From positions 360,001-392,000 of the forward strand of contig CP012986.1 in NCBI GenBank assembly GCA_001761425.1: a stretch of DNA of 32,000 nucleotides, written 5' to 3'. The notes below the pieces were generated by a model. The model was given only the letters and a program-made list of their open reading frames with translations. It did no database searches and was not told where the DNA came from. A program made the position numbers and the translations under genes. The first letter of the stretch is position 1, and each line of letters opens with the position of its first letter. This DNA comes from Candidatus Saccharimonadota bacterium. GTDB lineage: Archaea; Nanohalarchaeota; Nanosalinia; Nanosalinales; Nanosalinaceae. This document shows positions 1-32,000 of this stretch, one piece after another.

Positions 1-287
1 GTAACGGAAGGTCGAGGGTGGCGATAGTCGATAACAGCAATAATATCGCTTTGGTGAACAATCAGGGAGAGAAGGAGTTACTAACGGAGGATGGGGAAGC
101 CAGCAAGACCAGTATCTCAGTTATAGATCTGGACGATGACGGAGACATGGAAATAGCTTACGTTCCAAAATCAGGTGATAGAGGAATTTACTATGTCGAT
201 GACATCTTAGGTCAAAATCAGATAGCGGAGCTAAGTTCGGGGGCCAAACCGGCGACGGAAGTCGGGCTTACAGGTAGAATCCGGTAA
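1..287 (+). CDS. C-terminal fragment of a DxDxDG / FG-GAP-like repeat surface protein; its 5' end lies upstream of the window
   Basis: Frame 3 is open from the window edge, with no stop before the GTG at 18. The tail contains ISVIDLDDDGDMEIAYVPKSGDRGIYYVDD, the same blade motif repeated in the 930-aa ORF at 680..3472. Confidence 0.6.
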   Translation, partial: NGRSRVAIVDNSNNIALVNNQGEKELLTEDGEASKTSISVIDLDDDGDMEIAYVPKSGDRGIYYVDDILGQNQIAELSSGAKPATEVGLTGRIR

Positions 288-294
288 AAGATTT

Positions 295-714
295 ATGAGA
301 AGGGCAAATAGTTCAGTAAAAGGTCAGACATCTATAGAATTCTTCCTGCTTTTTGGAATGGCTATGGCTATTATGACAGTCCTCTTCGCCGCTATACAAA
401 CCAAAGAATCAGATGTGATGAGTCTTCAGAACCAGAAAACAGCAGCACAAATTGGTGAAAAAGTCGGTAAGCATGTCGAAAAAGCCTTGGCGGAGGGAAA
501 AGGCTATTCACGGAAATTCCGCGTCCCGGACCGGATAGCCGGCAGCAAGTACAATCTGACTGTAACTAACAAGACCGTAGTTGTAAGGTGGGGCGGCGGC
601 ATCGCTACAGCAGATACTATCTATTCAGGAGAGAAACTGAAACTTTCAACAAGGAGTACAAACCTGTACAAAGTGATACATGACGAAAAAGGTGTCAAAT
701 TCGTTGAGAGATAA
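295..714 (+). CDS. Pilin-like protein with archaeal class III (prepilin-type) signal peptide
   Basis: N-terminus is MRRANSSVKG|QTSIEFFLLFGMAMAIMTVLFAAI: a basic leader, a KG|Q cleavage-type motif, then a hydrophobic helix. It is the first gene of an overlapping co-directional operon. Confidence 0.7.
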   Translation: MRRANSSVKGQTSIEFFLLFGMAMAIMTVLFAAIQTKESDVMSLQNQKTAAQIGEKVGKHVEKALAEGKGYSRKFRVPDRIAGSKYNLTVTNKTVVVRWGGGIATADTIYSGEKLKLSTRSTNLYKVIHDEKGVKFVER

Positions 715-3472
715 AGGCCAGGCATTCCTGACTGATTTTGCTCTGAGCATGGCGATATTCGGGATAATCATCTCAGCGTTTTTCGTTCCCTGGAACATGA
801 TGATCGAGACCGAAAACAGGTTCTCCCATTCCGACGATATGAAGGCTAAGGCAGAGAGAACGGTATCAATCATGGTCACCTCGCCAGGATATCCGGAAGA
901 CTGGGAACAAAATCTCTCCGAGCCGGCTATCCTAGGATTATCTACGCAGAAAGAAAATGTAATCTCTATGGAAAAACTGGAGGCCTTTTCAAACCTCAGC
1001 AACGCACAAAAAACCTCCGTACTGAACTCAAGAGGATTTTCTCTCAACTTCAGATATCCTGAAAACTCGGAGGTCATAAAGTACAGTGACTCAGAAGTCC
1101 TGGGCACAGAATTTCTGGGAAAAGAGCCTATCGCATATATCGCACGAGGAGGCTCAACCTTCTCCTCGCTGGAGATGCTGGAAGAGTTAAACTCGTCCAC
1201 GAAGGAATGGTATTTCTACTTCCCTTCGGAGGAGAACCAGGATGATATAGACTCCCTGACAGCGGAGAAAACATATACTAACGAGGGATCTGGGCCCAAA
1301 ATGTTCCAGAGAATGATCAGTGACGCTGCCAACAGAGGATTCCAGAGGTTCAAGACAGGAAGTAAAATAAAGGCCTCTCTCTCGATCTCCGAAGTCTTTG
1401 AGGTTGACAACGATGGAAACAAGGGGATATTTTTCAGGGATCAGGACGGAAAACTGAAACTTCACAACCTTGAAAACAGCATGACAGAAGAGATAGATCC
1501 TGTAAACGAAGTTACCAGGATGGGAGCCGTCGAGAACTTCACCTCAGAGGAAGAAGAACTAGCTTTTATCAACGGAGACAGCAAATTAAATTTCTACAGT
1601 TTAGAAGACAACGAGGTCATAGAAACATCTATCGGGGCTGTAGACATCGGTGATTCTACCACTATTTCCGGTGACAAGGCCTTATTCTTCATAGATGACG
1701 ATAATTCTCTTTCATACTATATCAGAGGGAGAGGAAGTTTTGAGACATCTTTCAGCGGATCCAGGGTAGGAGGTGCTGGGGACATCGATGGAGACGACGT
1801 CTCCGAGATCGCGTTCCGGGATGAGGATGACAAACTCGCATTCTATGATCCCGAGACTGAGACGAAGCAGCCGACAGATCAAGGCGTTAAAGATGTAGGA
1901 TGGATCCATGAAAGATCTGTCGCAGTAGTCTCAGGCAACAACGAAAATCTGGGAGTCTGGAACTCTACGGACTCCTCATTTGAAAACTATCGGACAAAGG
2001 CGGGAGCTGTCACAGATTTCAGGAGGCACAGAGGAGACAGTTCAATTTTCTACATCGACCGGCAGATTGATCAAGATCTAGCCCGGTTCAATCCCGGGAC
2101 AGGGTTGACCGAATATCTGAGAGAAGGATCAGAAGAAAGTATCAAGGCCTTTGGAGGAGGCTGGGAAGTAAAACCAGATCAGACAGAAAGTTTAATCTCT
2201 TATAGGGACGCAAGCGGTTACCTGAGTTTCTACTCGGTTCAGAAAGGTTTTACCATGAGAAGCCAGGTCAAGGCCCAGGATATAGGCGGAGGAGGAGATC
2301 TGGATAGTGATGGAAACAATGAATTGGCCCTGATGGATTCGAACGGTTACCTAGGTTACTATGACTTCCAGGACGCCAGTAAAGTAATGCTAGAGGATTC
2401 AGGGTCACGCATTGCCTCAGGCCTTGTAGGGATGCCTGCTGACCTGGAAGGTGATAACACATCTGAGATACCTTATAGAACAGTTGATGACCTACTGGCA
2501 TATTATGATGTAGAGGAGGAAGAAGTAACAGTGATAAACTCAATAGGATCAATTGAGGATCTGGGGGACTCGAAAGACATAGATAGAGACGGGAACACAG
2601 AGATTCTCTACACCAAGAACGGAGAACTGAGATATTACGACCCTGTATCGGAGGAAAACACCGGAACCAACAGATTAGCCTCCGGTCTTGGAGGAGCAGC
2701 TGACCTGACAGGAAATCCTCAAAAAGAGATAATGTATAAAGATGATAATCAGTACCTCTCACATATCAATCCATCAAACTTTTTGAAAACTCAGGAGGCG
2801 CCCAAGATCACAAACGCTGGGTCTCTCACACAGCTGGGAGGGGACGAAAGCTTCTACGGTATAGTCATCGATGAGAACAATGAATTCGGTTACTTTGATT
2901 TCTCGATGAACCTGACATACAATACTATAATAGCCGAGAATGCGGAGGTGGAGGCCGATGAGGTTCGTAACGATGCAAGGCTGAGAGAAGCGGTGGAGAA
3001 AGGTATGACTTATTTACATACAAGAAACGATCCCAGCATCCTCACAAAAATATTTAATATGGACTCCCAGGATCCTGGCAGCAACAAAGCCAAGGTCCAG
3101 AAAGTCGAACCGCTCTTGAACCCCGAACTCTCCAGAGGAGAGGAAATCAGTTTTGAAAACGTCCAGACAGGATTTGAACGTACCAACACAGTTTTCGCAA
3201 ACTCCACACAGCCTCCGAACTCCTGTCTTGCCTGTAAAAAAACAGTTGGTGAAGGAAAAGTATATTACCTCGCAGACACTGATATCGGAAAGAAGAAGGC
3301 CTCATTAGCCGACCCCGAAACTGAGGTACAAGAGGAAAATGTCTCAAAACTGAAGATTGGGAAAGAAATCCCGGAAGAAGCCGAGAACGTCGTAAAAGCT
3401 GACAGATATGTAACCATCAAACATTCAGATGGCTTTGAAAACGCGGAGATCAATTACCTATTATGGAAATGA
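680..3472 (+). CDS. Large pilin-like-anchored repeat protein (candidate Ca-binding beta-propeller adhesin)
   Basis: The 930-aa ORF has the N-terminus RDKG|QAFLTDFALSMAIFGIIISAFF (class III signal-like). About 12 blades of roughly 42-47 aa follow, with motifs such as GDIDGDDVSEIAFRDEDDKLAFYD, GDLDSDGNNELALMDSNGYLGYYD and KDIDRDGNTEILYTKNGELRYYD. It overlaps the upstream gene by 35 nt and the downstream gene by 10 nt. Confidence 0.85.
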   Translation: MTKKVSNSLRDKGQAFLTDFALSMAIFGIIISAFFVPWNMMIETENRFSHSDDMKAKAERTVSIMVTSPGYPEDWEQNLSEPAILGLSTQKENVISMEKLEAFSNLSNAQKTSVLNSRGFSLNFRYPENSEVIKYSDSEVLGTEFLGKEPIAYIARGGSTFSSLEMLEELNSSTKEWYFYFPSEENQDDIDSLTAEKTYTNEGSGPKMFQRMISDAANRGFQRFKTGSKIKASLSISEVFEVDNDGNKGIFFRDQDGKLKLHNLENSMTEEIDPVNEVTRMGAVENFTSEEEELAFINGDSKLNFYSLEDNEVIETSIGAVDIGDSTTISGDKALFFIDDDNSLSYYIRGRGSFETSFSGSRVGGAGDIDGDDVSEIAFRDEDDKLAFYDPETETKQPTDQGVKDVGWIHERSVAVVSGNNENLGVWNSTDSSFENYRTKAGAVTDFRRHRGDSSIFYIDRQIDQDLARFNPGTGLTEYLREGSEESIKAFGGGWEVKPDQTESLISYRDASGYLSFYSVQKGFTMRSQVKAQDIGGGGDLDSDGNNELALMDSNGYLGYYDFQDASKVMLEDSGSRIASGLVGMPADLEGDNTSEIPYRTVDDLLAYYDVEEEEVTVINSIGSIEDLGDSKDIDRDGNTEILYTKNGELRYYDPVSEENTGTNRLASGLGGAADLTGNPQKEIMYKDDNQYLSHINPSNFLKTQEAPKITNAGSLTQLGGDESFYGIVIDENNEFGYFDFSMNLTYNTIIAENAEVEADEVRNDARLREAVEKGMTYLHTRNDPSILTKIFNMDSQDPGSNKAKVQKVEPLLNPELSRGEEISFENVQTGFERTNTVFANSTQPPNSCLACKKTVGEGKVYYLADTDIGKKKASLADPETEVQEENVSKLKIGKEIPEEAENVVKADRYVTIKHSDGFENAEINYLLWK
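1391..2910 (+). repeat. Tandem protein-level repeats (about 12 FG-GAP/integrin-alpha-like blades with DxDxDG loops) inside the 930-aa ORF
   Basis: A recurring pattern is read directly from the translation: G-(G/D)-x-x-D-(I/L)-D-x-D-G-x-x-E-(I/L)-x-(F/Y)-x-x-x-x-x-x-L-x-(F/Y)-Y-D. The repeats are diverged at nucleotide level. Confidence 0.6.
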
Positions 3473-3987
3473 GAAAGGGCTTTTATTTCTCAATGGATGC
3501 CGTGGTAGCCCTCGTGATAATGTCGGCAGCACTGACCCTGGTGATCCAGCTCTCTAACTCAGCTACAGGGGAGTTCCAGACAGACTCGTCCAGATACGCC
3601 GAGGCCACAGACAGAGGTAAGGATATCATCAAAATTGCCTCGGCAGAAAAGCTGAGCTCTCTTGAACAAAGCCAGACCCCGGAATTAACTCCTACAGTCG
3701 ATCCATCAAAGTTTAACGGCTCCGTACTCGATGCTGTAAACCTTCTCTGGGAGACCAATAATAAAACAAAGGCCTCAGACCTTGTCAAAATGTATTTTAC
3801 ACCGATGGTACCAAAAGATTACGAGTACAAGGTTATACTGGAGGGAAACGAAGTCGTATACAGGAGTTCCACTCTAGAAGACCCTCCACAGATAGTTACA
3901 AGCTCGACGACACTGACATATGTTCCTGAAAGGCCTGAAACCGTAGATCCGAAAAACATAAGACTGGTGATGTGGCGTGAAAAATAA
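3463..3987 (+). CDS. Pilin-like protein with class III signal peptide
   Basis: N-terminus is MEMRKG|FYFSMDAVVALVIMSAALTLVIQ. The start overlaps the upstream stop by 10 nt, consistent with translational coupling. Confidence 0.7.
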   Translation: MEMRKGFYFSMDAVVALVIMSAALTLVIQLSNSATGEFQTDSSRYAEATDRGKDIIKIASAEKLSSLEQSQTPELTPTVDPSKFNGSVLDAVNLLWETNNKTKASDLVKMYFTPMVPKDYEYKVILEGNEVVYRSSTLEDPPQIVTSSTTLTYVPERPETVDPKNIRLVMWREK

Positions 3988-5203
3988 GGGAATGGTCTAT
4001 ACGACCTTTGCTATAGTCGCTACAAATCTGCTTTTACTACTTTTCCTGACCACTTCAGGATCGAATGATTATACATCAAGCGTACAGATCAGAGAAGGAG
4101 AGGCCTCTCATTACCAACAGAGTGTAGAGGACTTTACAGGCAAGACCCATGAAATAGCTTTGAAGACTGCCAGCTCGGCTGTTATCAATCACACCTTGAG
4201 ACAAGGAGAAGGTATACAAGACGGGGAAGAGACCTTAGAGGCCCTTTTGATCAATGGAACCAGCGACGAAATAGATCGTCTCTTCAGGTACGCCTCGCTC
4301 AACAAATGGAGGGAAGACGTCAGCGAATCAGCGGAAGACAGAGGATATACACTATCTATAAAGTTCAATAAAAGGTCCCTGGACGATAGCTTCCTGAGTA
4401 TGACAGGTAATCTGACCTCGAGAATAGAGCTTGAGGCCCCTCAGACATCCTCGAGGTTCAATAAAACAGTAAGATATGAAAACCAGGTAAGCCTAGTAGG
4501 ACTTGAGGATACGATGCTGTTCTCAAGATCTGATGAAACTTACCGAAATAAATACAGACGATGTAGTTTCCGAAAACCGGCAGAAAAAATTACAGACGGC
4601 ACAGTCTCGAATCAAGGGGCAACTTTTGGAAAAGCAACCCGAAATAAAGACTCAGGGAACAAAGAAGAGAAGATCCTAGTGACAGATGGAGAACCGAACT
4701 CATCAAGAGCGAATGCCTATGCCGGAACCGTCGCATCATCGAATGAAGACCCAGAATACAAAAACACAAAATACATATTTGGAGCGGAAACAGCAGATAT
4801 AGAAGAAGGAGAGGATCTCATACTGTACCGAGATCAGGTCTGGAGCTCAAGAATCCGGCAGATAATCAACACAGGATGTTACCTGAAATCGAACGTAACA
4901 GGAGAAACCGGTCCAGGCCTGATGGAAAGAATGGAAAACAAGCTCCAGGCCCAGGAGAACGAAACAGAAGGCCTCCTCACGATTATAGATAAGAAACGTC
5001 TTCCAGAAGAGCTTCAATACCCCGGAAGATCCAGCATAGGTTACAAGTATTTTAGAAGTGATGAAGGTAAGAAAATAGCAGGCCTCACAGGAAACAAATC
5101 ATTCGACAAAAACAGAGACGGATACAGAGAGGACTTCCGACTCGATGAACAACATATTGAGAAATGGAATCTAAACACACCGGACGGAGGCCTAACATAC
5201 TGA
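3977..5203 (+). CDS. Pilin-like N-terminus protein, 408 aa, otherwise unassigned
   Basis: A GTG start gives MKNKG|MVYTTFAIVATNLLLLLFL. It overlaps the upstream gene by 11 nt and is the last gene of the + strand operon. Confidence 0.65.
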   Translation: MKNKGMVYTTFAIVATNLLLLLFLTTSGSNDYTSSVQIREGEASHYQQSVEDFTGKTHEIALKTASSAVINHTLRQGEGIQDGEETLEALLINGTSDEIDRLFRYASLNKWREDVSESAEDRGYTLSIKFNKRSLDDSFLSMTGNLTSRIELEAPQTSSRFNKTVRYENQVSLVGLEDTMLFSRSDETYRNKYRRCSFRKPAEKITDGTVSNQGATFGKATRNKDSGNKEEKILVTDGEPNSSRANAYAGTVASSNEDPEYKNTKYIFGAETADIEEGEDLILYRDQVWSSRIRQIINTGCYLKSNVTGETGPGLMERMENKLQAQENETEGLLTIIDKKRLPEELQYPGRSSIGYKYFRSDEGKKIAGLTGNKSFDKNRDGYREDFRLDEQHIEKWNLNTPDGGLTY

Positions 5204-5248
5204 AGAACTTAATCATCATAACTCCGCAGCTTTAATAGCTCGTCTTAT

Positions 5249-5275
5249 GATAAAGAGAAAAAAGGAGAAAAAGTG
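5249..5275 (-). terminator. Oligo-T tract terminator downstream of the pilin gene
   Basis: The minus strand reads CACTTTTTCTCCTTTTTTCTCTTTATC just after the pilin stop (5290..5292). Archaeal termination at T-runs is established. Confidence 0.35.
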
Positions 5276-5289
5276 TTAGACTCAACTTT

Positions 5290-5763
5290 CTAGCTGAGAG
5301 AGATACTGTCAGTCATTGTACCTGAAACAACTTGGCTCTGAATTCCATCTTCTACGTTGTACTGGATGGAGAGATCGAAGTCGTTACATCCATCTACAGA
5401 AGTTGCTCCAACGTCTGTTGTGAAGGTTGCGCTTGATCCTACTGAAATTGTTTCGTTTCCAGCATCATAGCTGTCTCCTTCAACTGAGATGTTGTCTATC
5501 TCTACAGGACTTGCTGCGGCATTCCTTAGCTCAAAAGCTAAGTTTCCATCAGAGTTTGTAGCAAAGTCTGCTACACGTACATCTGATGTTGAGAATCCTG
5601 ATGTGGATGTGGTACATTGACCCTGGACGGTTGCGAAGATTGCTCCTCCGACAATTGCTACAACAAGTAGCATCCATCCGTAGGTCATTAGGTACTCGAT
5701 TGCTGACTGACCTTTTCGCTTTGCGAATACGTCAAAATTCTGCGTCATAGTTGGTTTGGTCAC
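5290..5763 (-). CDS. Candidate major type IV pilin (class III signal peptide family)
   Basis: N-terminus FAKRKG|QSAIEYLMTYGWMLLVVAIVGGAIF is the classic archaeal class III signal motif (KGQSAIEYL). The product is small (157 aa), S/T/D-rich and has its own promoter and terminator. The start may be the GTG at 5763 or the ATG at 5748. Confidence 0.85.
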   Translation of the reverse strand: MTKPTMTQNFDVFAKRKGQSAIEYLMTYGWMLLVVAIVGGAIFATVQGQCTTSTSGFSTSDVRVADFATNSDGNLAFELRNAAASPVEIDNISVEGDSYDAGNETISVGSSATFTTDVGATSVDGCNDFDLSIQYNVEDGIQSQVVSGTMTDSISLS

Positions 5764-5789
5764 CCAATCAAGAACTAATTTGTTTGAGT

Positions 5790-5802
5790 CCTATAAAAAA
5801 CC
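5790..5802 (-). promoter_or_regulatory. TATA-box-like element for the pilin gene
   Basis: The minus strand reads GGTTTTTTATAGG, centred about 31 nt upstream of the GTG at 5763. Confidence 0.4.
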
Positions 5803-5886
5803 TTTTGAGTTAAGGCCTCTTCGTGTTTGTTTTCGATATATCTGGGTGTCGGTGTTGTTATGAAAAGATTCTAAGTCCTGTGTTTT

Positions 5887-6888
5887 TCATCCCATGGCTC
5901 CTGAAATTGCTCCCTGCACTCCTAGGAATAGTAGTATGGAGATTATAATGAATACTGGTACGTATTTGACTCCCTGTTTGATGTTGCCGTTGCTGATTTC
6001 CGAGATGATGAGGGCTGCGAACAAGTTGATTGATACGATCGCTAGAAGGGCGAATTCCTCGAATAGTGCTACATCAACATTGGGTGATGAGAAGGACATG
6101 TCGAATCCTACCTGGCTTCCTATACCTCCCATTCCTCCGCCTCCAGCGTCCTGCATGCTTCCGATATCTGCCTCGCTCCACATACTGGTGGTCTCCCGTG
6201 CCATATAGACGCTGATTGAGAACAGGACTGGTGCCCCTCCGACCGCTGCCATCATGATGAATATCTGATACATCCTGATAGATGATTTGATCTCATCCCT
6301 GATCTCCAGACTGTTCCTTATATCATCCGCGGAGGAATCCAGAAGCGCAGCTGTGTCTCCACCGGACTCTATACCATCTCTCAGCAGTTTCAGGGTTTCC
6401 TGGAAGAGCTCAGATTTCATCCTGTCCTCCAGGCTCTGCAGCGACTCCTCTACAGGCTCACCGCCATACATCTCCATGGCGGTCGCCCTCATCTCATCTG
6501 CCAGAGGCCCGAACTCATCTCTCGCAGACAGAAGAAAGGCCTTTTCCAGGGTGTGCCCTGACTTAATATTCGCTGATACAAGCCTCATAGCGTCGGGAAG
6601 TATTGATTCGATCTCTTTCTTTCTCCGCTCCGCTACGATCGAAATATACATGTAAGGAGTTACAGGTCCGGCAACAAGAGAAGCTACCAGGGCTACAACA
6701 GCTTTAGCCAAGGGATCGAAAGGTGCAAACATCATTACGATGCCCAGGGTAACTACAAAGCCAAACAGAGAACCGTAGAGAGTATATTTCTCCACTTCAT
6801 CTTCCATCGAAGCGTATAAGGCCTCCTGCTCCATCTTGTTCCTGTAGCGGGCAGGTATCAGCTCGTAGATATTCTTCTGGCTTATCAC
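5887..6888 (-). CDS. T2SSF-domain pilus/archaellum platform membrane protein (TadC/PilC/FlaJ-like)
   Basis: Contains the motif LPDAMRLVSANIKSGHTLEKAFLLSA followed by GDTAALLDSSADDIRN, plus flanking TM segments. The GTG start overlaps the upstream stop as GTGA (6885..6888). Confidence 0.8.
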   Translation of the reverse strand: MISQKNIYELIPARYRNKMEQEALYASMEDEVEKYTLYGSLFGFVVTLGIVMMFAPFDPLAKAVVALVASLVAGPVTPYMYISIVAERRKKEIESILPDAMRLVSANIKSGHTLEKAFLLSARDEFGPLADEMRATAMEMYGGEPVEESLQSLEDRMKSELFQETLKLLRDGIESGGDTAALLDSSADDIRNSLEIRDEIKSSIRMYQIFIMMAAVGGAPVLFSISVYMARETTSMWSEADIGSMQDAGGGGMGGIGSQVGFDMSFSSPNVDVALFEEFALLAIVSINLFAALIISEISNGNIKQGVKYVPVFIIISILLFLGVQGAISGAMG

Positions 6889-7800: not shown

Positions 7801-8466
7801 TCATTCCTGCATCAGAGTCCTGTCTATACGGCCGACCTCTGGGCCTGTCGTGTTCTCGCTTGTCAAAATACCTGTGTCGGTAGCTACAAGACCTGAACCG
7901 ATATACGGCGAACCCATGTCAACAGTACCGATATCCGCATCATTAACTCCCAAGGCCTCCATAACTTTTTCTGCATCATCTTCACCGGTCTCCCTGTGAA
8001 GCAATACTCCGTTCGAGTTGGCCTCGGCACATACGCCAATGTTTTTGATACCTGCGATACGTGAAACAGTGACATCTACATCTAAGGCCTCAGCGATTTC
8101 TTCCCTGTGTTCCTCTATCTTCTCGCTGATAACCGCGCCGTGATCGTTCGCAAGAATCAAATTACCGAGAGCATTGTCGTTAGTTTCGATAACCTGAAAA
8201 TCTATACCTGCTTCTTCCAGTTTCTTTTTCTCTCTGGAGGTGGCACCTTTTGGGATAAGAATACAGTTAGAGTTACCTGCTGTGAAAAGGCCTACAAGTC
8301 TTGTCCTGTTGATAAACGTTTCAGCGGATTTTTCTACATCGAAAAGTTCTTTTTTCTCCTCCTTGAACTCTGGAGGATAAACTGCCTGGGTGCTGGTTAA
8401 GGTGGCGTAGAACCCGATGCTGCTGTTTCCCAGGTAATCGTATCTCTGTATCTCCATCTGGATCAC
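7801..8466 (-). CDS. eif6: Translation initiation factor 6 (aIF6)
   Basis: The N-terminus YDYLGNSSIGFYATLTS and the repeated pentein-like segments (GNLILANDHGAVIS, GVCAEANSNGVLL, GSGLVATDTGIL) are typical of eIF6. The start is the GTG at 8466 or the ATG at 8457. Confidence 0.9.
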   Translation of the reverse strand: MIQMEIQRYDYLGNSSIGFYATLTSTQAVYPPEFKEEKKELFDVEKSAETFINRTRLVGLFTAGNSNCILIPKGATSREKKKLEEAGIDFQVIETNDNALGNLILANDHGAVISEKIEEHREEIAEALDVDVTVSRIAGIKNIGVCAEANSNGVLLHRETGEDDAEKVMEALGVNDADIGTVDMGSPYIGSGLVATDTGILTSENTTGPEVGRIDRTLMQE

Positions 8467-8675: not shown

Positions 8676-8685
8676 AGTACTTTTT

Positions 8686-14451: not shown

Positions 14452-14859
14452 ATGAGTGTAGAGTCTTATCTTGAGAAAAAAGATTACGGTTTTATCGTTG
14501 CTGGAGGAGTTTTAACTGTTTTAGCTGCCTTAGTTACACCGAGGGTTTTTTCGGATCCGATGCAGATAGAGACTTATTCAAGGCTGATAGTTGCAGCATT
14601 CATACTCTATGGTCTGTTTTCTATCCATAAAGCAATTCAGTCATGGGCTGGCGAGCTGGCAAGATATCTTCAGCTCATAGGTACAGGCCTCGCGATTTTG
14701 ATGATCGCATGGATTCCTCATATCGGATGGCATGTTAGAGGTAATCCGGAGTGGTTTGGAATGTCTCCGATTTCCTGGATAACAGTATTCCATGGACTCA
14801 CCATTTTGGCTTTCGCTGTATCGGCCTACGGGTTCCACCTGTTCTGGAAGAAGGCCTGA
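14452..14859 (+). CDS. Paralog P1 of an unassigned 4-TM membrane protein family
   Basis: Shares IHKAIQSWAGELARYLQLIGTGLAILMIAWIPHIGWH ... VFHGL ... AYGFHLFW with ORFs at 15325, 15763, 16861 and 17259. A TATA-like CTTTATCA lies 27 nt upstream of the ATG. Confidence 0.8.
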   Translation: MSVESYLEKKDYGFIVAGGVLTVLAALVTPRVFSDPMQIETYSRLIVAAFILYGLFSIHKAIQSWAGELARYLQLIGTGLAILMIAWIPHIGWHVRGNPEWFGMSPISWITVFHGLTILAFAVSAYGFHLFWKKA

Positions 14860-17262: not shown

Positions 17263-17684
17263 GCCTTATAGCCAACCTGGAGAAGAAGGACAAGTACCTC
17301 ATCGGAACAGGAGTAGCTCTAGGCCTGATCGCAGCAGTTATAGGACAGCTAGGAATCCTCGGAATGAAAGCGGAAATGATGCTCACCTATCTGATGGTAG
17401 CACCTATCCTTCCCGGTATCTACTTCCTTTACAAGGCAAGAAGCCTCTGGGGAGGAGATATCGCAAGATACCTGGACTTCATAGGCGCAGGCCTCATCAT
17501 CAACCTGGTTCTATTCCCTGTTCACATGAACTGGCACTTCGCAGCTCAAAGTGCTGAAGCAGCATTCCTTTCATGGGGAATCAGTCCAAGCTTCTGGTAC
17601 ATGTTCTTCCACGGACTGGCAGGATACTCCTTTGCAATGCTTGCATACGGATTCTACCTGTTCTACCAATCAGGCGCCGAATAA
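17259..17684 (+). CDS. Paralog P5 of the 4-TM family
   Basis: Contains LYKARSLWGGDIARYLDFIGAGLIINLVLFPVHMNWH ... FFHGL ... AYGFYLFY. Its GTG start overlaps the P4 stop as GTGA. Confidence 0.8.
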   Translation: MSLIANLEKKDKYLIGTGVALGLIAAVIGQLGILGMKAEMMLTYLMVAPILPGIYFLYKARSLWGGDIARYLDFIGAGLIINLVLFPVHMNWHFAAQSAEAAFLSWGISPSFWYMFFHGLAGYSFAMLAYGFYLFYQSGAE

Positions 17685-17719: not shown

Positions 17720-18628
17720 TTATTCCTCAGGCCTGTGAGGACTGATCTCCAGACTCTCCCCGTCAACAGCAAGCTCCGAGGCCTCAAAAACTTTCCTGGC
17801 TTCCTCAACAAGTTCATCTTCACGCCCCTGATACCGCCTCGAAATATGAGTTAATACCAGTCTATCAACATCAGCTTCATCGGCGATCTCACCTGCCTGA
17901 AGAGCTGAAGTATGACCTTTCCTGTCTTCAATCATCTCATGCATACACGTAGCCTCGTGAATCAGTAAATCAGCGTCTTCAGCGTTCTCAACAAGGTTAT
18001 CGCACTTCGCAGTATCCCCAGAATAAACAACTTTACGGCCAGGAACTTCTTTAACAACTTCTTCAGGCCTCACAGTTCTACCATCTATCTCTACAGTCTC
18101 ACCGTTCTTCAGGTCGCCGATCTTCGGCGAAGCACCGAGACCTAGTTCTTCCATCCTCTCTTTATCTGCTTTCACCTCTGAATCTTCCTCAAAGACAAAT
18201 CCAAAAGCGTTCACGGAGTGTTCGACCTCGAAAGGCCTTACCTCGTAGCCTTCGCCCACAATAACGTCTCCCTCGACCAGGTCCTCTGTAAAAATATCGT
18301 AGCTCCGGGAGAAGTAACCCGTATCCAGGATTCTCTCCGTAAACTCCCCGGTTCTTGGAGGACCGTAGATGTACAGCGGTTTCTCCCTTCCCTCCATCTC
18401 AAGAGTCTGTATAAGGCCTAGAAGACCTGAAAAATGGTCTGCATGCCAGTGAGTTATGAAGATCCGGTCGATTTTCATCAGGCCCATCTTCTCCTGCATT
18501 ATCTTTCTCTGTGCGCCTTCTCCGCAGTCGAAGAGGATGCGTTCTCCCTTGAAGTTTATCATGTTGGCCGGGAGGCCTCTCTTTCTGCTTGGTACCGCGC
18601 TTGAGGAGCCGATAGTCCATACGTCCAT
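17720..18628 (-). CDS. rnz: Ribonuclease Z (tRNA 3' endonuclease, metallo-beta-lactamase fold)
   Basis: Contains ILFDCGEGAQRKI, the HxHxDH motif ITHWHADHFSGL and C-terminal motifs HEATC and LVLTHISRRY. The length of 302 aa is typical of the short form of RNase Z. Confidence 0.92.
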   Translation of the reverse strand: MDVWTIGSSSAVPSRKRGLPANMINFKGERILFDCGEGAQRKIMQEKMGLMKIDRIFITHWHADHFSGLLGLIQTLEMEGREKPLYIYGPPRTGEFTERILDTGYFSRSYDIFTEDLVEGDVIVGEGYEVRPFEVEHSVNAFGFVFEEDSEVKADKERMEELGLGASPKIGDLKNGETVEIDGRTVRPEEVVKEVPGRKVVYSGDTAKCDNLVENAEDADLLIHEATCMHEMIEDRKGHTSALQAGEIADEADVDRLVLTHISRRYQGREDELVEEARKVFEASELAVDGESLEISPHRPEE

Positions 18629-20151: not shown

Positions 20152-21173
20152 CTAGTTTTTCTCCCCCGTTTCAGATCCAGCAGAGCCAGGTAACCCAGAA
20201 GAAGGCCTGGCCAGTAAGTTGTCAACCTGAAGAGCACTGATGCTGCTACAGCAGTAGCAGCCGTTATTGTCTCAGGGAAGAAAGCGAGCAGTAGGCCCGA
20301 GAATGCTGCCTCGAACGTGCCTGAACCTCCCGGAGTTGGCGAAAACATTGCGATCGCTGCCAGTACCACGGTAAAGTAAATTCCTACGAAGTGAGGATTC
20401 AATCCAAGGCCTACAAGGATGAAATACAGTGAAAGAAGCTGTACGACCGGAGCGATATGAGTTACTAAAGTTACCTTGAGAAGATGCCGCCTGTCCTCAC
20501 CGGCTTTCTGAAAGGCCTTCCTTGTCTCTGTTATCCTCTCTTTCAAAGGAGGAACGACTTTTTCCGTATATTTTATCTTGTCTCCTACGTAATCAAGTGC
20601 TTCATGGATTTTAGCCTCTACTTTATCGGTTTTGAACCATGCCAGGTATGCTGTAGTTACCAGTAGAATATTCAGCAGTATTACTGCGTAGATACCTGTT
20701 TTGATGGCTTCTGTTATAGTGCTGAACAGTATTATGTAAACTATCCCTGCTGATGCGTATGTTACGAATGGTATGGCGTTTATTATGTCTGCCGACATAA
20801 CTGTGGAAAGGCTTTTCTCATAGGTGGCCTCGGTGTTACTTGAGACCACGTATGCCATGAACGGTTCACCTCCCAGCTGGCCCAGCGGTGTGATCGAGTT
20901 CATGAAGTTACCTGCCATAAACAGCTTCAGCGAGTTCATCCTGCTGGAATTGAAGCCCAGTTGCTGGAAAAAGCTGTGGTAGATATAGCCGAAGACAAGG
21001 AAAAACGACATGCCTGAGATAAACGCCAGGAACATATAGAATGGGTCGATACTCCTTATCGCCTCTACAAAGTCTCCGACATCGGCGAAATAGATCAGAC
21101 CCGCAAATATGACTGTGGTTATCCCGTACCAGAGAAATTTGCTGTCCTTAGCCTTGAAAAGCAATGACTTCAT
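20148..21173 (-). CDS. Flippase-like polytopic membrane protein (LPG_synthase_TM / UPF0104 family)
   Basis: About 8 TM segments and the family-typical loop FMAGNFMNSITPLGQLGGEPFMAYVV. Its stop overlaps the trm11 start as ATGA. Confidence 0.65.
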   Translation of the reverse strand: MKSLLFKAKDSKFLWYGITTVIFAGLIYFADVGDFVEAIRSIDPFYMFLAFISGMSFFLVFGYIYHSFFQQLGFNSSRMNSLKLFMAGNFMNSITPLGQLGGEPFMAYVVSSNTEATYEKSLSTVMSADIINAIPFVTYASAGIVYIILFSTITEAIKTGIYAVILLNILLVTTAYLAWFKTDKVEAKIHEALDYVGDKIKYTEKVVPPLKERITETRKAFQKAGEDRRHLLKVTLVTHIAPVVQLLSLYFILVGLGLNPHFVGIYFTVVLAAIAMFSPTPGGSGTFEAAFSGLLLAFFPETITAATAVAASVLFRLTTYWPGLLLGYLALLDLKRGRKTR

Positions 21174-21346
21174 CTCCTCACCTCGAAATATCTGGAACTA
21201 TGAATAATATAATGTTCCCACATATTTTTCAGATAACGTCCACAGAAACTGGGGAGCGTAAACCTTTTTTCCTCTTAACTGATGCTAAGGCCCCGACTTC
21301 GGGTAGAAGTACCAGATATTTCAAGGTTCACGGTAACTTTTTGGAT

Positions 21347-22303
21347 ATGGCAGAGAAAGTAGGGATAATCTACTGGTGCCAGGGCGCAGGACATGCCGCA
21401 AGGAGCATCCCGATCGCTCAGGAACTGGAATCCAGAGGACACGAAGTAGTTATGGACGGCGGAGGTCCAGGCCAGAGATTTGCAGAGATGAACGGATTCG
21501 GCCACGAAGACTATCACTTTTCGACAATACCTGTAATAAGCAAATCACCTGTATCAATAATCAAAAGAGGCCTCCTGGAGGTAATACCTTCCGCAGTAAA
21601 ACGTTTCAAGACCTCTGTAAGCTTCCTCAGGAACGAAGACCCTGACAAAGTCGTGACGGATGACCACACAGTTATACTCGCAGCAACACTGCTCAACTAC
21701 GATCTCTACACAGTAAACCACCTGAGGCCTCAGTTCTTCTCAGGCGCAGAAAAACTCGCAGCCCAGTTATTTGACAAATTCTCCCTGTTTAGAGGTGAAA
21801 AAATATTTTTCACAACACTCTGGAGCAATGAATCAGGAGCAAAGGACGTAGAACACGTTAATCCTCTCGCACAGGAGGGAGATGGAGAGGTAGAACCTTA
21901 TGACGTACTTCTCATACCCGGATCATTCGGAGAAAGCTTCGGGGAAGTAAGAGAACTGCTGGAGGCCGAAGGCCTTAACGTGAGGACAGTCGGAGACGAC
22001 AGCTGGGAGACAAAGGCCTCGATGACGCCTTACACGGAAGCAGCGGACTGTGTCGTATGCACAGGATTCTCATCGATTGCTGACACGGTTGTCGCTGGTA
22101 CTCCGTGCGTGGTGTTCCCGCATCTACAGATGCAGGAGCTTCTCACGAAGCAGATCGACAGCCGTGATATAAAAGGGGTTTCGACAGCTTACTCTGTAGA
22201 CGAGGCGGTAGAGAAGTCTATAGAGGTTTGTGAAGGAGATAGTGAGAGGCCTGAGTTTGACAATGGAGCTCCTGAGGTTGCAGATGTTCTCCTAGAGAAT
22301 TAG
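21347..22303 (+). CDS. GT-B fold glycosyltransferase, MurG/GT28-like (paralog 1)
   Basis: N-terminus MAEKVGIIYWCQGAGHAARSIPIAQELESRGHEV has the GxGHxxR motif. The C-terminal half reads VCTGFSSIADTVVAGTPCVVFPH. I place the start at ATG 21347 by alignment with the paralogs at 22374 and 25389 and by a TATA-like element about 28 nt upstream. The ORF-track start at 21164 would add 61 unmatched residues. Confidence 0.7.
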   Translation: MAEKVGIIYWCQGAGHAARSIPIAQELESRGHEVVMDGGGPGQRFAEMNGFGHEDYHFSTIPVISKSPVSIIKRGLLEVIPSAVKRFKTSVSFLRNEDPDKVVTDDHTVILAATLLNYDLYTVNHLRPQFFSGAEKLAAQLFDKFSLFRGEKIFFTTLWSNESGAKDVEHVNPLAQEGDGEVEPYDVLLIPGSFGESFGEVRELLEAEGLNVRTVGDDSWETKASMTPYTEAADCVVCTGFSSIADTVVAGTPCVVFPHLQMQELLTKQIDSRDIKGVSTAYSVDEAVEKSIEVCEGDSERPEFDNGAPEVADVLLEN

Positions 22304-26474: not shown

Positions 26475-28127
26475 ATGGGAACTGACAACGTTGATGTCTT
26501 CAAGAAGGTAATATTCAGGATTCCTGAGCTCAGGAAGATTCTGGCAGCTATAATAGGCCTTGGATCGGTCTATGCTGCTGTTACTCATGTTTCATTTTCA
26601 GCGTTTGCAGGAAGATCTCTCAGCCTTGTGGTTATGCCTTTCCTGGCGTTTTTCGTCTATATTGCCCCGGCAGCGGTTTCTGGAGAGGTGCTTTACCGCA
26701 TCCTGCCTGATTATCCTAGAAAATGGGGTTACTTCCTGGCGACGTGTAATCAGGCAATACTACTGGTATTCAGTCTTTTACTCTCCCTTTCGACAAATAT
26801 AGTCACCACCTGGAATATAATCTGGCTGGGCCTGATGACAGTCTACCTCTCGAACTTCTTCATACTCCTTATCTCCGTAGGATACCAGTATCTCAGAAAA
26901 GTAGGCCTTATCAGCCTGGTACAGCCTGTAATGATACTTGCATCGTTCCACCTCTTCCTCGGAAGATACCTCCAGATACCTTTAAGCCTGTACATCCTCA
27001 ACTTCGGGTTCCTGCTGGTAATGGGCCTTCTACTGGTGATATCGTTCGCAATCTTCGATTACCTTATAGGAAGCAACGTAGCCAACGTCTCCGTCATCCA
27101 ACTAGCATCAGGCCTCCTACAGAAAAGACAGGAAGCACTAGACCTCGGATTCCCCGCAGAACCAGACGTACAAACTCTTTCCATCAAAAACAAGGCCTCA
27201 GACCTGACAGTTTCGATCCCATGGATACATCCAGGCCCCCTGGAAGGTTTCGGAGGAGGAAAAATCACGACACATATCATAGACCTGATAAACAAAGACG
27301 AAGGAGAAGGATTTTTCTTCCACGTCCCATCAACACATCAGTCAGATCCAGCGGATCCAAGAGACACAGGAAAGATTGTCAATGCGATGAAAAGGCCTGA
27401 AAACAGTGGAAAGGCATCGAAGATGATCAAAAAAAGCTTTGGAAGCACAACTTTCTACGGAAGGGCCTTCGGCGACAAAAAAATAGTTTTCCTGGAGATA
27501 GAGAACTTCGATGACTATGAAATCGCGGTATTCCGCGACCTAGTGGATCTTAAAAAAGTTACAGTAGTCGATCTCCACAACGACGACTTCAACGAAGGCG
27601 ATAGAGAAAACATGTACTACGGAACGTCTGTAGCCGAGAAAACCAGAAAACAAATGAGGGAATTCCTCGAGGAACTTGACTCCCTGGAACAGTACAGTTA
27701 CAGCGCTGGCTTCACAATGGAGATTGGAGATCCATCGGTCATGAGCATTGTAGAAGAAGTCGATGGACAGAGAACAGTTCTCTACGGCATAGAAGGTAAC
27801 GGCTCCTCGAAGAACCTGAGAGAACTCAGAGAAGAATTCAGGGAAGGCTTTGATGAAGTACTGCTTTTCAGCACAGATACACACAGCAGCATACACGAGA
27901 TGGCGACAAAAGAACAAGTAGACAAAGACAGGATCAGAGAAACAGTCAAAGAAGCCTCCTCGAATACATCAGAGGCCTCTATAGGCCTTGCACATGGGAA
28001 AGCAGACAGAATGAATCTTCTAAGAGAAGACTATGCCTCACTGATCTTCAGTATTAACATACTGGTAAGACTGATACCTCTAACTCTTGCTTTGTTCTAC
28101 ATACTCCTGGTGGTCTGGACACTGTAG
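26475..28127 (+). CDS. Archaeal polytopic membrane protein with a central soluble domain (DUF2070-like)
   Basis: 550 aa: about 6-7 N-terminal TM segments, a roughly 300-aa soluble domain (WIHPGPLEGFGGGKIT, FFFHVPSTHQSDPADP) and a C-terminal TM. The family name is recalled from architecture only. Confidence 0.55.
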   Translation: MGTDNVDVFKKVIFRIPELRKILAAIIGLGSVYAAVTHVSFSAFAGRSLSLVVMPFLAFFVYIAPAAVSGEVLYRILPDYPRKWGYFLATCNQAILLVFSLLLSLSTNIVTTWNIIWLGLMTVYLSNFFILLISVGYQYLRKVGLISLVQPVMILASFHLFLGRYLQIPLSLYILNFGFLLVMGLLLVISFAIFDYLIGSNVANVSVIQLASGLLQKRQEALDLGFPAEPDVQTLSIKNKASDLTVSIPWIHPGPLEGFGGGKITTHIIDLINKDEGEGFFFHVPSTHQSDPADPRDTGKIVNAMKRPENSGKASKMIKKSFGSTTFYGRAFGDKKIVFLEIENFDDYEIAVFRDLVDLKKVTVVDLHNDDFNEGDRENMYYGTSVAEKTRKQMREFLEELDSLEQYSYSAGFTMEIGDPSVMSIVEEVDGQRTVLYGIEGNGSSKNLRELREEFREGFDEVLLFSTDTHSSIHEMATKEQVDKDRIRETVKEASSNTSEASIGLAHGKADRMNLLREDYASLIFSINILVRLIPLTLALFYILLVVWTL

Positions 28128-30291: not shown

Positions 30292-30439
30292 AGATACAGG
30301 TTCTGTGAACTCGTTAAAAAACCTGGCGGATTTTCCTGCAGAGGCCTTTTTTTGACCTTGAGGAATGCAATATTTTGTTTTACTGGAACTTTGCTTTTAG
30401 TCTGAAATGAGTATTTTTTAGGTAGGAGGTGGAAGAAAG

Positions 30440-30946
30440 ATGACAGAGATAAAAACTGCTCATGACCTGTTTGTCCACAACCTGAAATCTATTTATTACC
30501 TTGAACAGAGGCTTCGGGATGAGCTGGATGGTCTGGCAGGTGAGGTCACTAATGATGATCTGGCGGAGGCTCTCCAGGAACACAGGAGGGAAACTGTGGA
30601 TCAGGTGGAGAGACTTGAAAAAGTGTTTGAGAAACTGGGTGAGGAGATAGAAGGCCACCGTGCTGCCGATTTCCACGGCCATTTCAGGGAGATAAAACAG
30701 CTGAACGAGGATATCTACGAGACAGATATGCTTAACATCGCCTTCCTTGATGCAGCGATAAAAACAGAGCAGATGGAGATAACCACCTACAACAGCCTGA
30801 TCAGGATAGTCGATGACCTGGCAGTAGACGACGATATAGAGAATCTTCTGAAAGACAATCTCCGGGAGGAGAAAGAAGCTCTCGAAAAACTCAGGAAACT
30901 CGCCGGTGAAACATGGTTCAGCAAGATAGTAAAAAGCCTTACCTAG
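30440..30946 (+). CDS. DUF892 (YciE/YciF-like) ferritin-like protein
   Basis: AHDLFVHNLKSIYYLEQRLRDEL...LAEALQEHRRETVDQVERLEKVFEKLG matches the family pattern. Both AGGAGGTG 8 nt upstream and a T-rich TATA-like element about 24 nt upstream are present. Confidence 0.85.
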   Translation: MTEIKTAHDLFVHNLKSIYYLEQRLRDELDGLAGEVTNDDLAEALQEHRRETVDQVERLEKVFEKLGEEIEGHRAADFHGHFREIKQLNEDIYETDMLNIAFLDAAIKTEQMEITTYNSLIRIVDDLAVDDDIENLLKDNLREEKEALEKLRKLAGETWFSKIVKSLT

Positions 30947-31018
30947 CAGAAAAACCTGGAGAATCATATCTTGGACTTAAACTCGAAAAAACTTTTTCCG
31001 TTAACCGAGTTGAAAAGT

Positions 31019-31090
31019 TGCGGCGTCGGGGATTTGAACCCCGGTTACGCGCATGGCAAGCACGTGTCTTAGCCACTGGACCAACGCCGC
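31019..31090 (-). tRNA. tRNA-Gly (anticodon GCC), no intron, no encoded CCA
   Basis: The reverse complement is GCGGCGT-TG-GTCC-AGTGGCTA-AGAC-A-CGTGC-TTGCCAT-GCGCG-TAAC-CGGGG-TTCAAAT-CCCCG-ACGCCGC-A. It has a 7-bp acceptor stem, a 5-bp anticodon stem with one G-U pair, a 5-bp T stem with a TTCAAAT loop and the anticodon loop TT-GCC-AT. Confidence 0.93.
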
Positions 31091-31247: not shown

Positions 31248-31709
31248 ATGGAAGATAAAAGTCCGGAGATGGATGATGAGGCACGGAAGGATTTCCTTGT
31301 TGACAGGGCGAAAGAAGCTATCGAACACCAGCTTGAAACCGGAGACGACCCTTTCGAGGAGGAGAGGCCTCAGAGACCTGAATTAAATACAAAGAGGAAC
31401 AGCCTCGATGAGAAAGTCGAGCAGAAGGCCTCAAAGAAGACCTCCGGTGAGTGGAGTATGGAGGAGATCAAGTTTCTGAAGAACAACCGATCCGAGATGA
31501 GCAATGAGGAGATGGAAGAGTTTATGAACAAAGAATCTGAGCTTCACGAGGTTGACTGGGAGCCTTTCTCACGTTCACAGGAGCGTTATCTTATCCAGGC
31601 CTACCAGACCTCTGATCTGGAAGAGCTGGCGGAGCAAATGGATCGCATCGAGAAAGTTCTGGACCTGAAGCTCAGGATGATGGGCCTCGAAGTGCCGGAG
31701 GCAGAATAG
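31248..31709 (+). CDS. Highly charged hypothetical protein (153 aa), upstream partner of nop5
   Basis: ORF with E/K/D-rich composition. A TATA-like ATTTTTGA lies about 28 nt upstream. Its stop is 3 nt before the nop5 ATG. Confidence 0.6.
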   Translation: MEDKSPEMDDEARKDFLVDRAKEAIEHQLETGDDPFEEERPQRPELNTKRNSLDEKVEQKASKKTSGEWSMEEIKFLKNNRSEMSNEEMEEFMNKESELHEVDWEPFSRSQERYLIQAYQTSDLEELAEQMDRIEKVLDLKLRMMGLEVPEAE

Positions 31710-31712
31710 GCC

Positions 31713-32000
31713 ATGGATAAAGAGAAACTGCGTGAAAAAGCTCTTTCGGACACTAAGGAGGAGCTAAGAAGCGAAGTTGACAGGGACAGGATTCTTGTCA
31801 AGGCGGTCAAACAGCTCGATCAGCTAAATGATAATATAAACACTGAAGTTGAGAGGTTGAGGGACTGGTATTCTCTGCATTTTCCTGAACTGGATGAAGA
31901 GATCAGCGACAACGAACATTTTGTCAAGATACTGTCCAGAGGTATCAACAGAAACGAATTAGAGGCCTTTTCCGATATGGCAGCTGCTTCGACAGGGATG
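31713..32000 (+). CDS. nop5: Nop5 (Nop56/58) C/D box sRNP core protein, 5' part; runs off the window
   Basis: The hand-translated frame is open to the window end: MDKEKLREKALSDTKEELRSEVDRDRILVKAVKQLDQLNDNINTEVERLRDWYSLHFPELDEEISDNEHFVKIL... It carries the RLR(E/D)WY..HFPEL signature of the Nop5 coiled-coil/Nop junction. It is absent from the ORF track because there is no stop in the window. Confidence 0.8.
   Translation, partial: MDKEKLREKALSDTKEELRSEVDRDRILVKAVKQLDQLNDNINTEVERLRDWYSLHFPELDEEISDNEHFVKILSRGINRNELEAFSDMAAASTGM

Follow-up and report, generated by a model that had tools for sequence, protein, structure and literature searches.

Positions 360,001 to 392,000 of contig CP012986.1, a 32,000-base stretch of nanohaloarchaeal DNA referred to here as the window, are densely populated by dispersed copies of the palindromic hexamer AGGCCT. 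Comparison of the window with related genomes showed that a genome-wide bias fixes and then keeps the complete hexamer, in coding and non-coding DNA alike, in all reading frames and on both strands; that this bias is weakened by another copy within ∼30 nt and mildly so up to ∼150 nt; and that close relatives differ in having the trait switched on or off. By analogy, the word seems to be an archaeal equivalent of the highly iterated palindromes (HIPs) of cyanobacteria. The explanation that we favour, tentatively and at somewhat less than an even chance, is that AGGCCT is a HIP-type element of one nanohaloarchaeal group that arises through an orphan methyltransferase of the StuI type combined with either biased repair or selection on the methylated mark.

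An exact count of AGGCCT gave 128 copies in the window. An earlier, sequence-only reading of this DNA had estimated 125 to 130 copies, in agreement with this count, and all 15 of the coordinates that it quoted were true AGGCCT sites. The set can be described as follows.

1..32000, unstranded: dispersed AGGCCT set, 128 copies, with a mean spacing of 244 nt (median, 187 nt; range, 10 to 1055 nt)

Base composition predicted ∼6.7 copies per window, and dinucleotide-preserving shuffles (n = 100) contained 8.56 ± 2.94 copies with a maximum of 17. The observed excess of ∼15-fold (128 versus 8.6) lies at or above the level of at least 10- to 15-fold over-representation at which a short G+C-rich palindrome is classed as a HIP. 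Ranking of all hexamers in the window placed AGGCCT first, with ranks 2 to 5 all being occupied by words that overlap it; the highest-ranking hexamer independent of AGGCCT was TTCTTC, with 48 copies. Words differing at one end were infrequent (AGGCCC, 16 copies; AGGCCA, 11; AGGCCG, 3; GGGCCT, 8; TGGCCT, 10; CGGCCT, 10), and this range of 3 to 16 matched the ∼3 to 15 copies each that had been put forward previously. Markov models of increasing order gave expectations of 8.6 (order 1), 24.6 (order 2), 58.5 (order 3) and 119 (order 4, the maximal order). The order 4 value is circular and uninformative because AGGCC (158 copies) and GGCCT (156 copies) occur within AGGCCT itself in ∼81% of cases. 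The sequence-only reading had proposed a count near the maximal-order expectation as a refutation; owing to this circularity, the proximity of 119 to the observed 128 did not refute the excess.

The excess was not restricted to genes, and nine copies were located in intergenic DNA.

5813..5818, 9040, 13021, 16158, 24177, 26406, 30342, 31191 and 31963, unstranded: intergenic copies of AGGCCT

Within the window, the density was 3.2 sites/kb in intergenic DNA versus 4.1 sites/kb in coding DNA. When the enriched genomes and the non-enriched relatives described below were each pooled, intergenic densities were 2.93/kb versus 0.22/kb and coding densities were 3.68/kb versus 0.29/kb, a difference of ∼13-fold that was alike in the two types of DNA. 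Flanks of 10 kb were taken from contig Ga0136257_100001 (1,125,078 bp; Joint Genome Institute [JGI] metagenome 3300010222), on which the window occupies positions 358,963-390,962. The window and both flanks together contained 206 sites in 51.4 kb (4.0/kb), with 12 to 28 sites per 5-kb bin. Over these 51.4 kb, the excess is a property of the whole genome and not just of the window; by extrapolation at a constant density, the whole contig would carry ∼4,500 AGGCCT sites.

Coding DNA was analysed with 38 curated window genes, which were checked against relatives and the JGI gene calls. The 118 sites within coding sequences were distributed over all three codon phases (AGG-CCT, 20; xAG-GCC-Txx, 44; xxA-GGC-CTx, 54) and over genes on both strands. 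Examples of each phase and the two cases in the window of overlap with a stop codon are listed below.

3931..3936, plus strand: AGG-CCT read as Arg-Pro in gene 3463-3987; 20 of the window's 23 Arg-Pro dipeptides are encoded by the word
981..986, plus strand: xAG-GCC-Txx read as Glu-Ala-Phe in gene 680-3472; the word is written in 44 of the 59 permissive (K/E/Q)-Ala-(F/L/S/Y/C/W) contexts
17321..17326, plus strand: xxA-GGC-CTx read as Leu-Gly-Leu in gene 17259-17684; 54 of the 76 permissive x-Gly-Leu contexts are used
14852..14857, plus strand: copy overlapping the TGA stop codon of gene 14452-14859
22302-22307: copy overlapping the TAG stop codon of gene 21164-22303

Shuffling of synonymous codons within genes (500 trials) produced 18.4 ± 4.0 copies, with a maximum of 32, and shuffling of whole codons gave an expectation of 9.8 copies in the coding sequences, as opposed to the 118 observed. 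Among the places where AGGCCT could be written without altering the protein, 118 of 158 (75%) carried the word, in comparison to ∼10% (0.095) in the orthologues of non-enriched relatives. Sites were evenly distributed along genes, per-gene counts were Poisson-like, and almost all of the genes of more than 600 nt had at least one site. An occurrence in all frames, in both gene orientations and in intergenic DNA, at a level beyond codon usage, is a property expected of HIPs and was observed here.

These data also bore out three claims of the sequence-only reading: that the word occurs in three codon phases, in both gene orientations, in non-coding DNA and across stop codons; that codon or dipeptide bias does not account for it (as seen with the synonymous shuffle and with the comparison of NGGCCN words below); and that what is enriched is the entire hexamer, not GGCC. 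Sequences beyond the ±1 positions were flat, indicating a hexameric unit rather than sites that derive from copies of a longer repeat. A preference for a purine at −1 and a pyrimidine at +1 varied with codon phase and was hence codon driven, and on these grounds the 8-mer RAGGCCTY was rejected as the true motif. GGCC was rejected as the true core because NGGCCN words lacking the AGGCC half-site were unchanged in abundance.

The specificity for the complete word was apparent when enriched and non-enriched genomes were compared. Only words retaining an AGGCC half-site were raised (1.5- to 3.8-fold, with the transition variants AGGCCC/GGGCCT showing the 3.8-fold value), while inner-position variants had ratios of 0.83 to 1.2 and other NGGCCN words had ratios of 0.9 to 1.2. 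One-nucleotide deviations were therefore concentrated at the outer positions, as for HIPs. Window sites aligned with non-enriched orthologues exhibited a mean of ∼2.5 base differences, which were spread over all six positions and involved all types of substitution. Alignment with enriched orthologues gave a bimodal pattern, with 103 identical sites, 19 one-off sites and a remainder that looked unrelated. Since all six positions differ in the non-enriched orthologues, one-off states are few and only words with a half-site are raised, the attractor is the complete hexamer. The odds toward AGGCCT were ∼13 in free DNA and ∼28 at synonymous contexts (usage of 0.75 versus 0.095).

Sites of the window were conserved as AGGCCT in 32 to 73% of cases in enriched relatives versus 12 to 21% for control hexamers. 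As with HIPs, sites were thus shared at orthologous positions more often than control words, although independent saturation of the same contexts could give the same result. Protein sequences were also affected. Permissive peptide contexts in the same orthologous segments numbered 18.9 per 1,000 amino acids in the window, 16.7 in enriched relatives and 13.3 in non-enriched relatives and were hence ∼40% commoner in the window than in non-enriched orthologues. The bias is hence strong enough to fix amino acid replacements.

The distribution of the trait was examined around the threonyl-tRNA synthetase (ThrRS) gene of the window (10955-12928, minus strand), which is 81 to 88% identical to the genes of genomes assigned to Candidatus Nanohaloarchaea, Nanohalobium and Nanosalina. 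A first comparison set consisted of 80 genome loci around ThrRS, with ∼20 kb per relative. Eight nanohaloarchaeal genomes in this set shared the excess, at 2.2 to 4.6 sites/kb, and included the complete genomes CP046106.1 (strain M3_22; locus L003) and NZ_CP180230.1 (Candidatus Nanosalina sp. VS9-1). Equally close relatives (among them loci L001, L005, L009, L010, L062 and L072) had 0 to 0.4 sites/kb; for example, L001, with a ThrRS identity of 86%, had a single AGGCCT in 21.9 kb. All of the 50-odd haloarchaeal loci examined had 0.0 to 0.36 sites/kb. A second set, obtained by a metagenome search with ThrRS, supplied further non-enriched loci and 12 independent loci that were enriched at 1.7 to 5.3 sites/kb, bringing the total of enriched related loci to about 20. 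Two of the 12 (L240 and L241) came from a lineage with a ThrRS identity of only 64%. Metagenome-assembled genomes on the enriched side include JAWOFP01, JALDAN01 and Ga0102942_1000012, and JBEQBC01, JBEQBQ01, JBLGBN01 and CAZSAB01 are non-enriched. At 81 to 88% identity, genomes held either 2 to 5 or 0 to 0.4 sites/kb, and the two types were interleaved in a neighbour-joining tree of ThrRS, a single-gene tree whose topology is indicative only. The metagenome search detected no strain nearly identical to the window genome, and a search of genome contigs with the 930-amino-acid protein encoded at 680-3472 found no relatives.

Saturation in orthologous segments was 0.72 to 0.82 in most enriched genomes, 0.55 and 0.66 in two, 0.2 to 0.3 in a few intermediates and 0.00 to 0.15 elsewhere. 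Intermediate states, with a saturation of 0.2 to 0.66 or a density of 1.3 to 2.2 sites/kb, were observed for L003 (saturation of 55%), L023, L014 (31%), L018, L019, L022, L217, L218, L222, L223 and L264. These genomes may be ones in which the trait is either accumulating or in decay, which makes them useful for timing the process. No alternative iterated word was found in the non-enriched relatives, whose top words were repeats of Glu codons. Some non-enriched loci had fewer copies than expected (0 versus 5.3 in L017, from JALDAJ010000001.1, NHA25; 1 versus 4.4 in L001), and there were no copies in the 35 kb of L224 and L226. There may be avoidance of AGGCCT in some non-enriched nanohaloarchaea; this effect was not significant after multiple testing.

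Neighbouring sites were found to exclude each other. Gaps of <30 nt were observed 12 times versus 49 expected in eight enriched sequences and 9 times versus 47 expected in the 12 independent metagenome loci, a replicated 4- to 5-fold depletion, and gaps of 150 to 300 nt were in excess. The correlation over all pairs of sites was 0.21 at 1 to 30 nt, 0.73 to 0.82 at 31 to 150 nt and ∼1 beyond. Permissive contexts were used at a frequency of 0.24 when another site was <15 nt away, 0.37 at 15 to 30 nt and 0.68 to 0.81 at greater distances (pooled Mann-Whitney test, P = 8e-7; same direction in eight of eight sequences). As the usage of permissive contexts itself falls near other sites, the exclusion is not a coding artefact. 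The median distance to the nearest site was 54 nt for unused contexts versus 133 nt for used contexts, and spacing was more even than random in most genomes (coefficient of variation, 0.73 to 0.86). No significant periodicity in pair distances was detected given the number of periods tried, the best Fourier peak being at 10.2 nt. The extremes of spacing in the window and three unused contexts close to a site are given here.

27973..27988, unstranded: closest pair of sites, with starts 10 nt apart
20519..21567, unstranded: longest site-free stretch, with 1055 nt between starts
18423..18428, minus strand: AGGTCT in a permissive x-Gly-Leu context that is left unused; the nearby site at 18414 is 9 nt away
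31374: unused permissive context AGACCT, 9 nt from the site at 31365
20401: unused permissive context, 6 nt from the site at 20407

This exclusion bears on explanations based on a methyltransferase, a binding protein or self-recognition and does not decide among them.

The favoured HIP-type explanation would work in the following manner. Lineages would be switched between the enriched and non-enriched states by a sequence-specific factor that they gain and lose with ease, and the leading candidate for this factor is an orphan Type II DNA methyltransferase with StuI (AGGCCT) specificity, probably forming N4-methylcytosine (m4C). The patchy distribution among close relatives points to the lability that is typical of methyltransferase and restriction-modification (RM) genes. 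One option is that a methyl-directed choice of strand during repair would protect a newly arisen site and that a nearby existing site would make the new one redundant, as in the HIP model of Elhai. Another option is that the methylated mark is itself under weak selection. Very-short-patch repair of T:G mismatches would play no part in either option. Elhai 2015 (PMC4390886) reported that each alternate HIP hexamer of cyanobacteria co-occurs with a cognate methyltransferase and that one-off variants of HIP1 cluster at outer positions and proposed that methyl-directed repair preserves new sites and becomes saturated where a site is already nearby. The interference between sites observed here is a prediction of that model, in which no new sites arise near existing ones. 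Evidence for the link to a methyltransferase is indirect. In a survey of archaeal RM systems from REBASE, the enriched genome M3_22 is credited with a single RM gene, which encodes an orphan Type II methyltransferase of predicted m4C type, with no restriction enzyme, no Vsr endonuclease (V = 0) and no 5-methylcytosine (m5C) enzyme (m5C = 0). The REBASE enzyme with a predicted AGGCCT specificity, Moth_2281, is an m4C enzyme with a measured motif of GGGCC(m4C)C, and the published methylome of a nanohaloarchaeon (Candidatus Nanohalococcus occultus) contains a different and rare motif, GDGCHC. The literature searched contained no paper combining AGGCCT with nanohaloarchaea.

Several results weigh against this explanation. 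The search for a driver gene utilized Pfam on all open reading frames (ORFs) of the window, PADLOC on 10 ORFs without a Pfam family and on 112 ORFs of enriched loci, motif scans, and gene calls in the flanks. No DNA methyltransferase or restriction enzyme was detected in the window ORFs, in both 10-kb flanks, in the ∼20 kb per relative or in the 112 ORFs, although the portion scanned is ∼5% of the source contig and an absence from it says little either way. The only methyltransferases found were a THUMP/UPF0020 tRNA enzyme (19225-20151), aTrm56 and an FkbM-type enzyme, all of which act on RNA or small molecules and are also present in non-enriched relatives; weak PADLOC matches to 'MTase_II' and 'mad2', which were not assigned to individual ORFs, are probably orthologues of the tRNA methyltransferase. 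Secondly, no clear 'repair shadow' was seen beside shared sites, where third-position identity was 0.50 versus 0.44, a small effect in a confounded comparison that has little power because divergence is near saturation. Thirdly, the sharp exclusion at ≤30 nt looks more like the footprint of a protein than the length of a repair tract. Finally, Xu, Lawrence and Durand 2018 (PMC5861425) argued that selection, and not biased repair, maintains HIP1 in cyanobacteria.

The last two points lead to the main rival, which we consider a serious if rather unlikely explanation. AGGCCT would be bound by a dimeric protein that is abundant, such as a factor of chromatin, condensin loading or segregation, and that is present in the enriched lineages only, with the ∼4,500 sites being kept by weak selection and with two sites inside one footprint not both being usable. 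A palindrome fits a symmetric dimer, and the replicated exclusion at ≤30 nt (usage of 0.24 to 0.37 versus 0.68 to 0.81; pair correlation of 0.21), the even spacing, the presence of at least one site in almost all genes of >600 nt and the chromosome-structure reading of HIP1 by Xu et al. (PMC5861425) are all in keeping with a bound protein. However, no candidate protein is known, gain or loss of core chromatin proteins is unusual between relatives with 86 to 88% identical ThrRS, and neither a helical nor a longer periodicity stood out in the pair distances. Intergenic DNA, which is the cheapest place for such sites, was not denser in AGGCCT than coding DNA.

A less probable proposal, and an unlikely one in our estimation, is that AGGCCT, whether methylated or not, serves as a dense 'self' mark against host or foreign DNA, acting in the stopping or exclusion of a nuclease that would digest imported haloarchaeal DNA or in kin-biased uptake and exchange. 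The contrast in density with the presumed hosts is 20- to 40-fold (∼4/kb here versus 0.0 to 0.36/kb in the haloarchaeal loci), a palindrome can be read in either orientation, and a second mark within 30 nt would add nothing, which is consistent with the exclusion. Furthermore, nanohaloarchaea are described in the literature as obligate symbionts having cytoplasmic bridges to their hosts. This proposal is nevertheless purely inferential, with no nuclease or uptake system being linked to AGGCCT; the known uptake sequences are longer (9 to 12 nt) and non-palindromic; sister lineages with the same lifestyle lack the motif; and the T2SSF (type IV pilus-like) genes of the window occur in non-enriched relatives too. 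A bolder form of the proposal, which we rate as slightly less probable again, would have AGGCCT as a methylated or protein-bound tag, spaced by its footprint over the 1.1-Mb genome, by which the cell keeps its own DNA and degrades or excludes imported host DNA. If true, this tagging system would be modular and would spread among nanohaloarchaeal lineages by horizontal transfer, with thousands of codons and hundreds of amino acids being rewritten on each occasion. The explanations based on a methyltransferase, a binding protein and a self mark are not mutually exclusive.

The sequence-only reading had also suggested that an m5C methyltransferase coupled to T:G repair of the very-short-patch type could drive near-cognate sites to cognate ones. 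In this mechanism, which we now regard as very improbable, a Vsr-type endonuclease would ratchet AGGTCT or AGGCTT to AGGCCT. There is a precedent in Escherichia coli, where Dcm and Vsr are associated with an excess of CCWGG, and 16 of the 23 leftover one-off contexts differed from AGGCCT by a transition. The T-containing words were, however, not depleted (ratios of 0.98 for AGGCTT/AAGCCT and 0.90 for AGGTCT/AGACCT), and among the one-off leftovers of permissive contexts, AGGTCT/AGACCT occurred most often. Non-enriched orthologues differed at all six positions, with transversions as often as C/T changes, and repair of one position cannot build AGGCCT from such sequences. The magnitude of the effect (13- to 28-fold, 75% saturation and amino acid changes) is far above that in E. 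coli, and REBASE lists neither a Vsr nor an m5C enzyme for M3_22. This hypothesis was thus not supported, and the interpretation offered by the sequence-only reading as a whole is partly supported. The maximal-order Markov expectation of 119 and the codon-driven ±1 preference could be cited for an artefact that stems from codon usage, dipeptide composition, hidden repeats or mere chance, but such an artefact is refuted by the synonymous shuffle (18 versus 118 copies), the equal 13-fold excess in intergenic DNA, the flat outer flanks showing that sites are not repeat copies, the absence of the word from orthologous genes of relatives and the circularity of that Markov value.

The relationship to known systems was then considered feature by feature. 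The cyanobacterial HIPs comprise HIP1 (GCGATCGC) and the alternate hexamers GGCGCC, GCCGGC and GCsGC (PMC4390886; PMC5861425). AGGCCT resembles HIP1 in being a short G+C-rich palindrome with an at least 15-fold excess that affects all frames and both strands and extends to non-coding DNA; in its lineage-specific, sporadic presence, its outer-position variants and the sharing of sites between enriched genomes; and in having a contested cause, methyltransferase-linked repair versus selection. Unlike HIP1, it is found in an archaeon (a DPANN symbiont), is a different word capped by A and T, is four times denser (∼4/kb versus ∼1/kb) and has a measured exclusion at ≤30 nt that is not described for HIP1. 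A periodicity of 10 to 90 kb has been reported for HIP1; the data for AGGCCT span 51 kb. In contrast to the alternate HIPs, the cognate methyltransferase of AGGCCT is here only a candidate. The features that are new with respect to the known HIPs, the literature on which concerns cyanobacteria only, are the DPANN host, the measured exclusion zone and a natural series of presence and absence in 1-Mb genomes.

Among Type II enzymes, StuI recognizes AGGCCT, a classic site of 6 bp. The present element shares its recognition word with the StuI/Eco147I Type II RM systems and is patchy among relatives, as is the case for mobile RM genes. Sites of active RM systems are usually avoided in the host genome, whereas AGGCCT is in ∼15-fold excess, so that any tie to a StuI-type system would be through an orphan methyltransferase. 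The resemblance to Dcm/Vsr of E. coli lies in the association of a palindromic methyltransferase site with a compositional excess; the differences are the lack of depletion of T-containing words, the involvement of all six positions, a magnitude that is an order larger and the absence of Vsr and m5C enzymes from the REBASE listing for M3_22. Like the DNA uptake sequences (DUS) of Neisseria, the uptake signal sequences (USS) of the Pasteurellaceae and Chi, AGGCCT is a short word present in coding DNA through a fixation bias and could mark 'self', with those words occurring at ∼1/kb. Those words are, however, 8 to 12 nt long, non-palindromic and orientation dependent and have known machinery (ComP and RecBCD). 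DUS and USS are defined as non-palindromes of 9 to 12 nt with conserved flanks, and AGGCCT is a 6-nt palindrome with uninformative flanks beyond ±1.

Other words and other sources of AGGCCT were noted during these comparisons. A viral region designated L139 (IMGVR_UViG_2791354938_000002, 8150-20011) had 26 dispersed copies of AGGCCT in 11.9 kb, ∼9 times the expectation. This is a region of a tailed phage (HK97 capsid, portal and TerL) with a non-halophilic proteome, and its TerL shares 52% identity with the TerL proteins of Lactobacillus delbrueckii phages; the related phage PMBT4 had only 6 copies in 31 kb. L139 may indicate an AGGCCT excess in an unrelated Firmicute host. The scan of viral contigs for clustered AGGCCT otherwise yielded mostly tandem repeats or telomere-like arrays, and no nanohaloarchaeal virus was identified in it. 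In some non-enriched relatives, non-palindromic hexamers exceeded the first-order expectation by 4- to 8-fold, namely, CAGGTA/TACCTG in L010 and L072 and CCGGTA/TACCGG in L012 and L013, with counts of 41 versus 8.7, 25 versus 6.8 and 15 versus 1.8. These excesses could be other methyltransferase-linked effects or codon pair effects. GATATC was ∼6-fold over-represented in three Halovenus loci (L040, L052 and L053; 15 to 20 copies per 22 kb), and TAGCTA was ∼10-fold over-represented in a Halorussus litoreus locus (L036; 6 copies); both are milder excesses of palindromes, found in haloarchaea. ACCGGT was in 2- to 7-fold excess in the window and in most nanohaloarchaeal loci, both enriched and non-enriched; this excess is lineage wide and probably codon related.

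The window also contains several genes of separate interest. Positions 1-7742 hold a gene cluster, probably for a type IV pilus or surface structure, that is partly present in non-enriched relatives, and a single RNA gene was found.

295-714: DUF7266 pilin-like gene of the pilus-like cluster
680-3472: gene for a 930-amino-acid protein without a family, in the pilus-like cluster together with two further family-less ORFs
5887-6888 and 6885-7742: two T2SSF/TadC-like membrane genes of the pilus-like cluster
31019-31090, minus strand: tRNA-Gly(GCC), the only RNA gene found in the window, with no AGGCCT inside

Seven small genes on the same strand at 14452-17684 have no Pfam family and, among the fetched loci, were conserved only in L001 (33 to 84% identity). 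The overlapping ORFs 8491-8868 (plus strand) and 8686-9009 (minus strand) both had tblastn matches in relatives; the JGI calls at this overlap are a PDCD5-like dsDNA-binding gene at 8686-9009 (minus strand) and a 57-amino-acid gene at ∼8502-8675 (minus strand). At 30440-30946 (plus strand), the DUF892 gene is the real gene and not the longer antisense ORF at 30380-30967 (minus strand).

The origin and role of HIPs have been in question for ∼30 years and have been studied in cyanobacteria only, where little contrast is available because nearly all lineages carry HIP1. Among the nanohaloarchaea, with genomes of ∼1 Mb, close relatives carry the trait fully (4 to 5 sites/kb and 75 to 80% saturation), carry it partly (20 to 55%) or lack it. 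Complete genomes are available on both sides (CP046106.1, NZ_CP180230.1 and Ga0136257_100001 enriched; JALDAJ010000001.1 not), and at least one enriched lineage, Candidatus Nanosalina sp. VS9-1, appears to be in culture. This series of presence and absence in 1-Mb genomes makes the question of HIP origin directly testable, and the 30-nt exclusion is a new quantitative constraint for any mechanism. In hypersaline metagenomes, AGGCCT is usable as a marker for binning and for the assignment of hosts.

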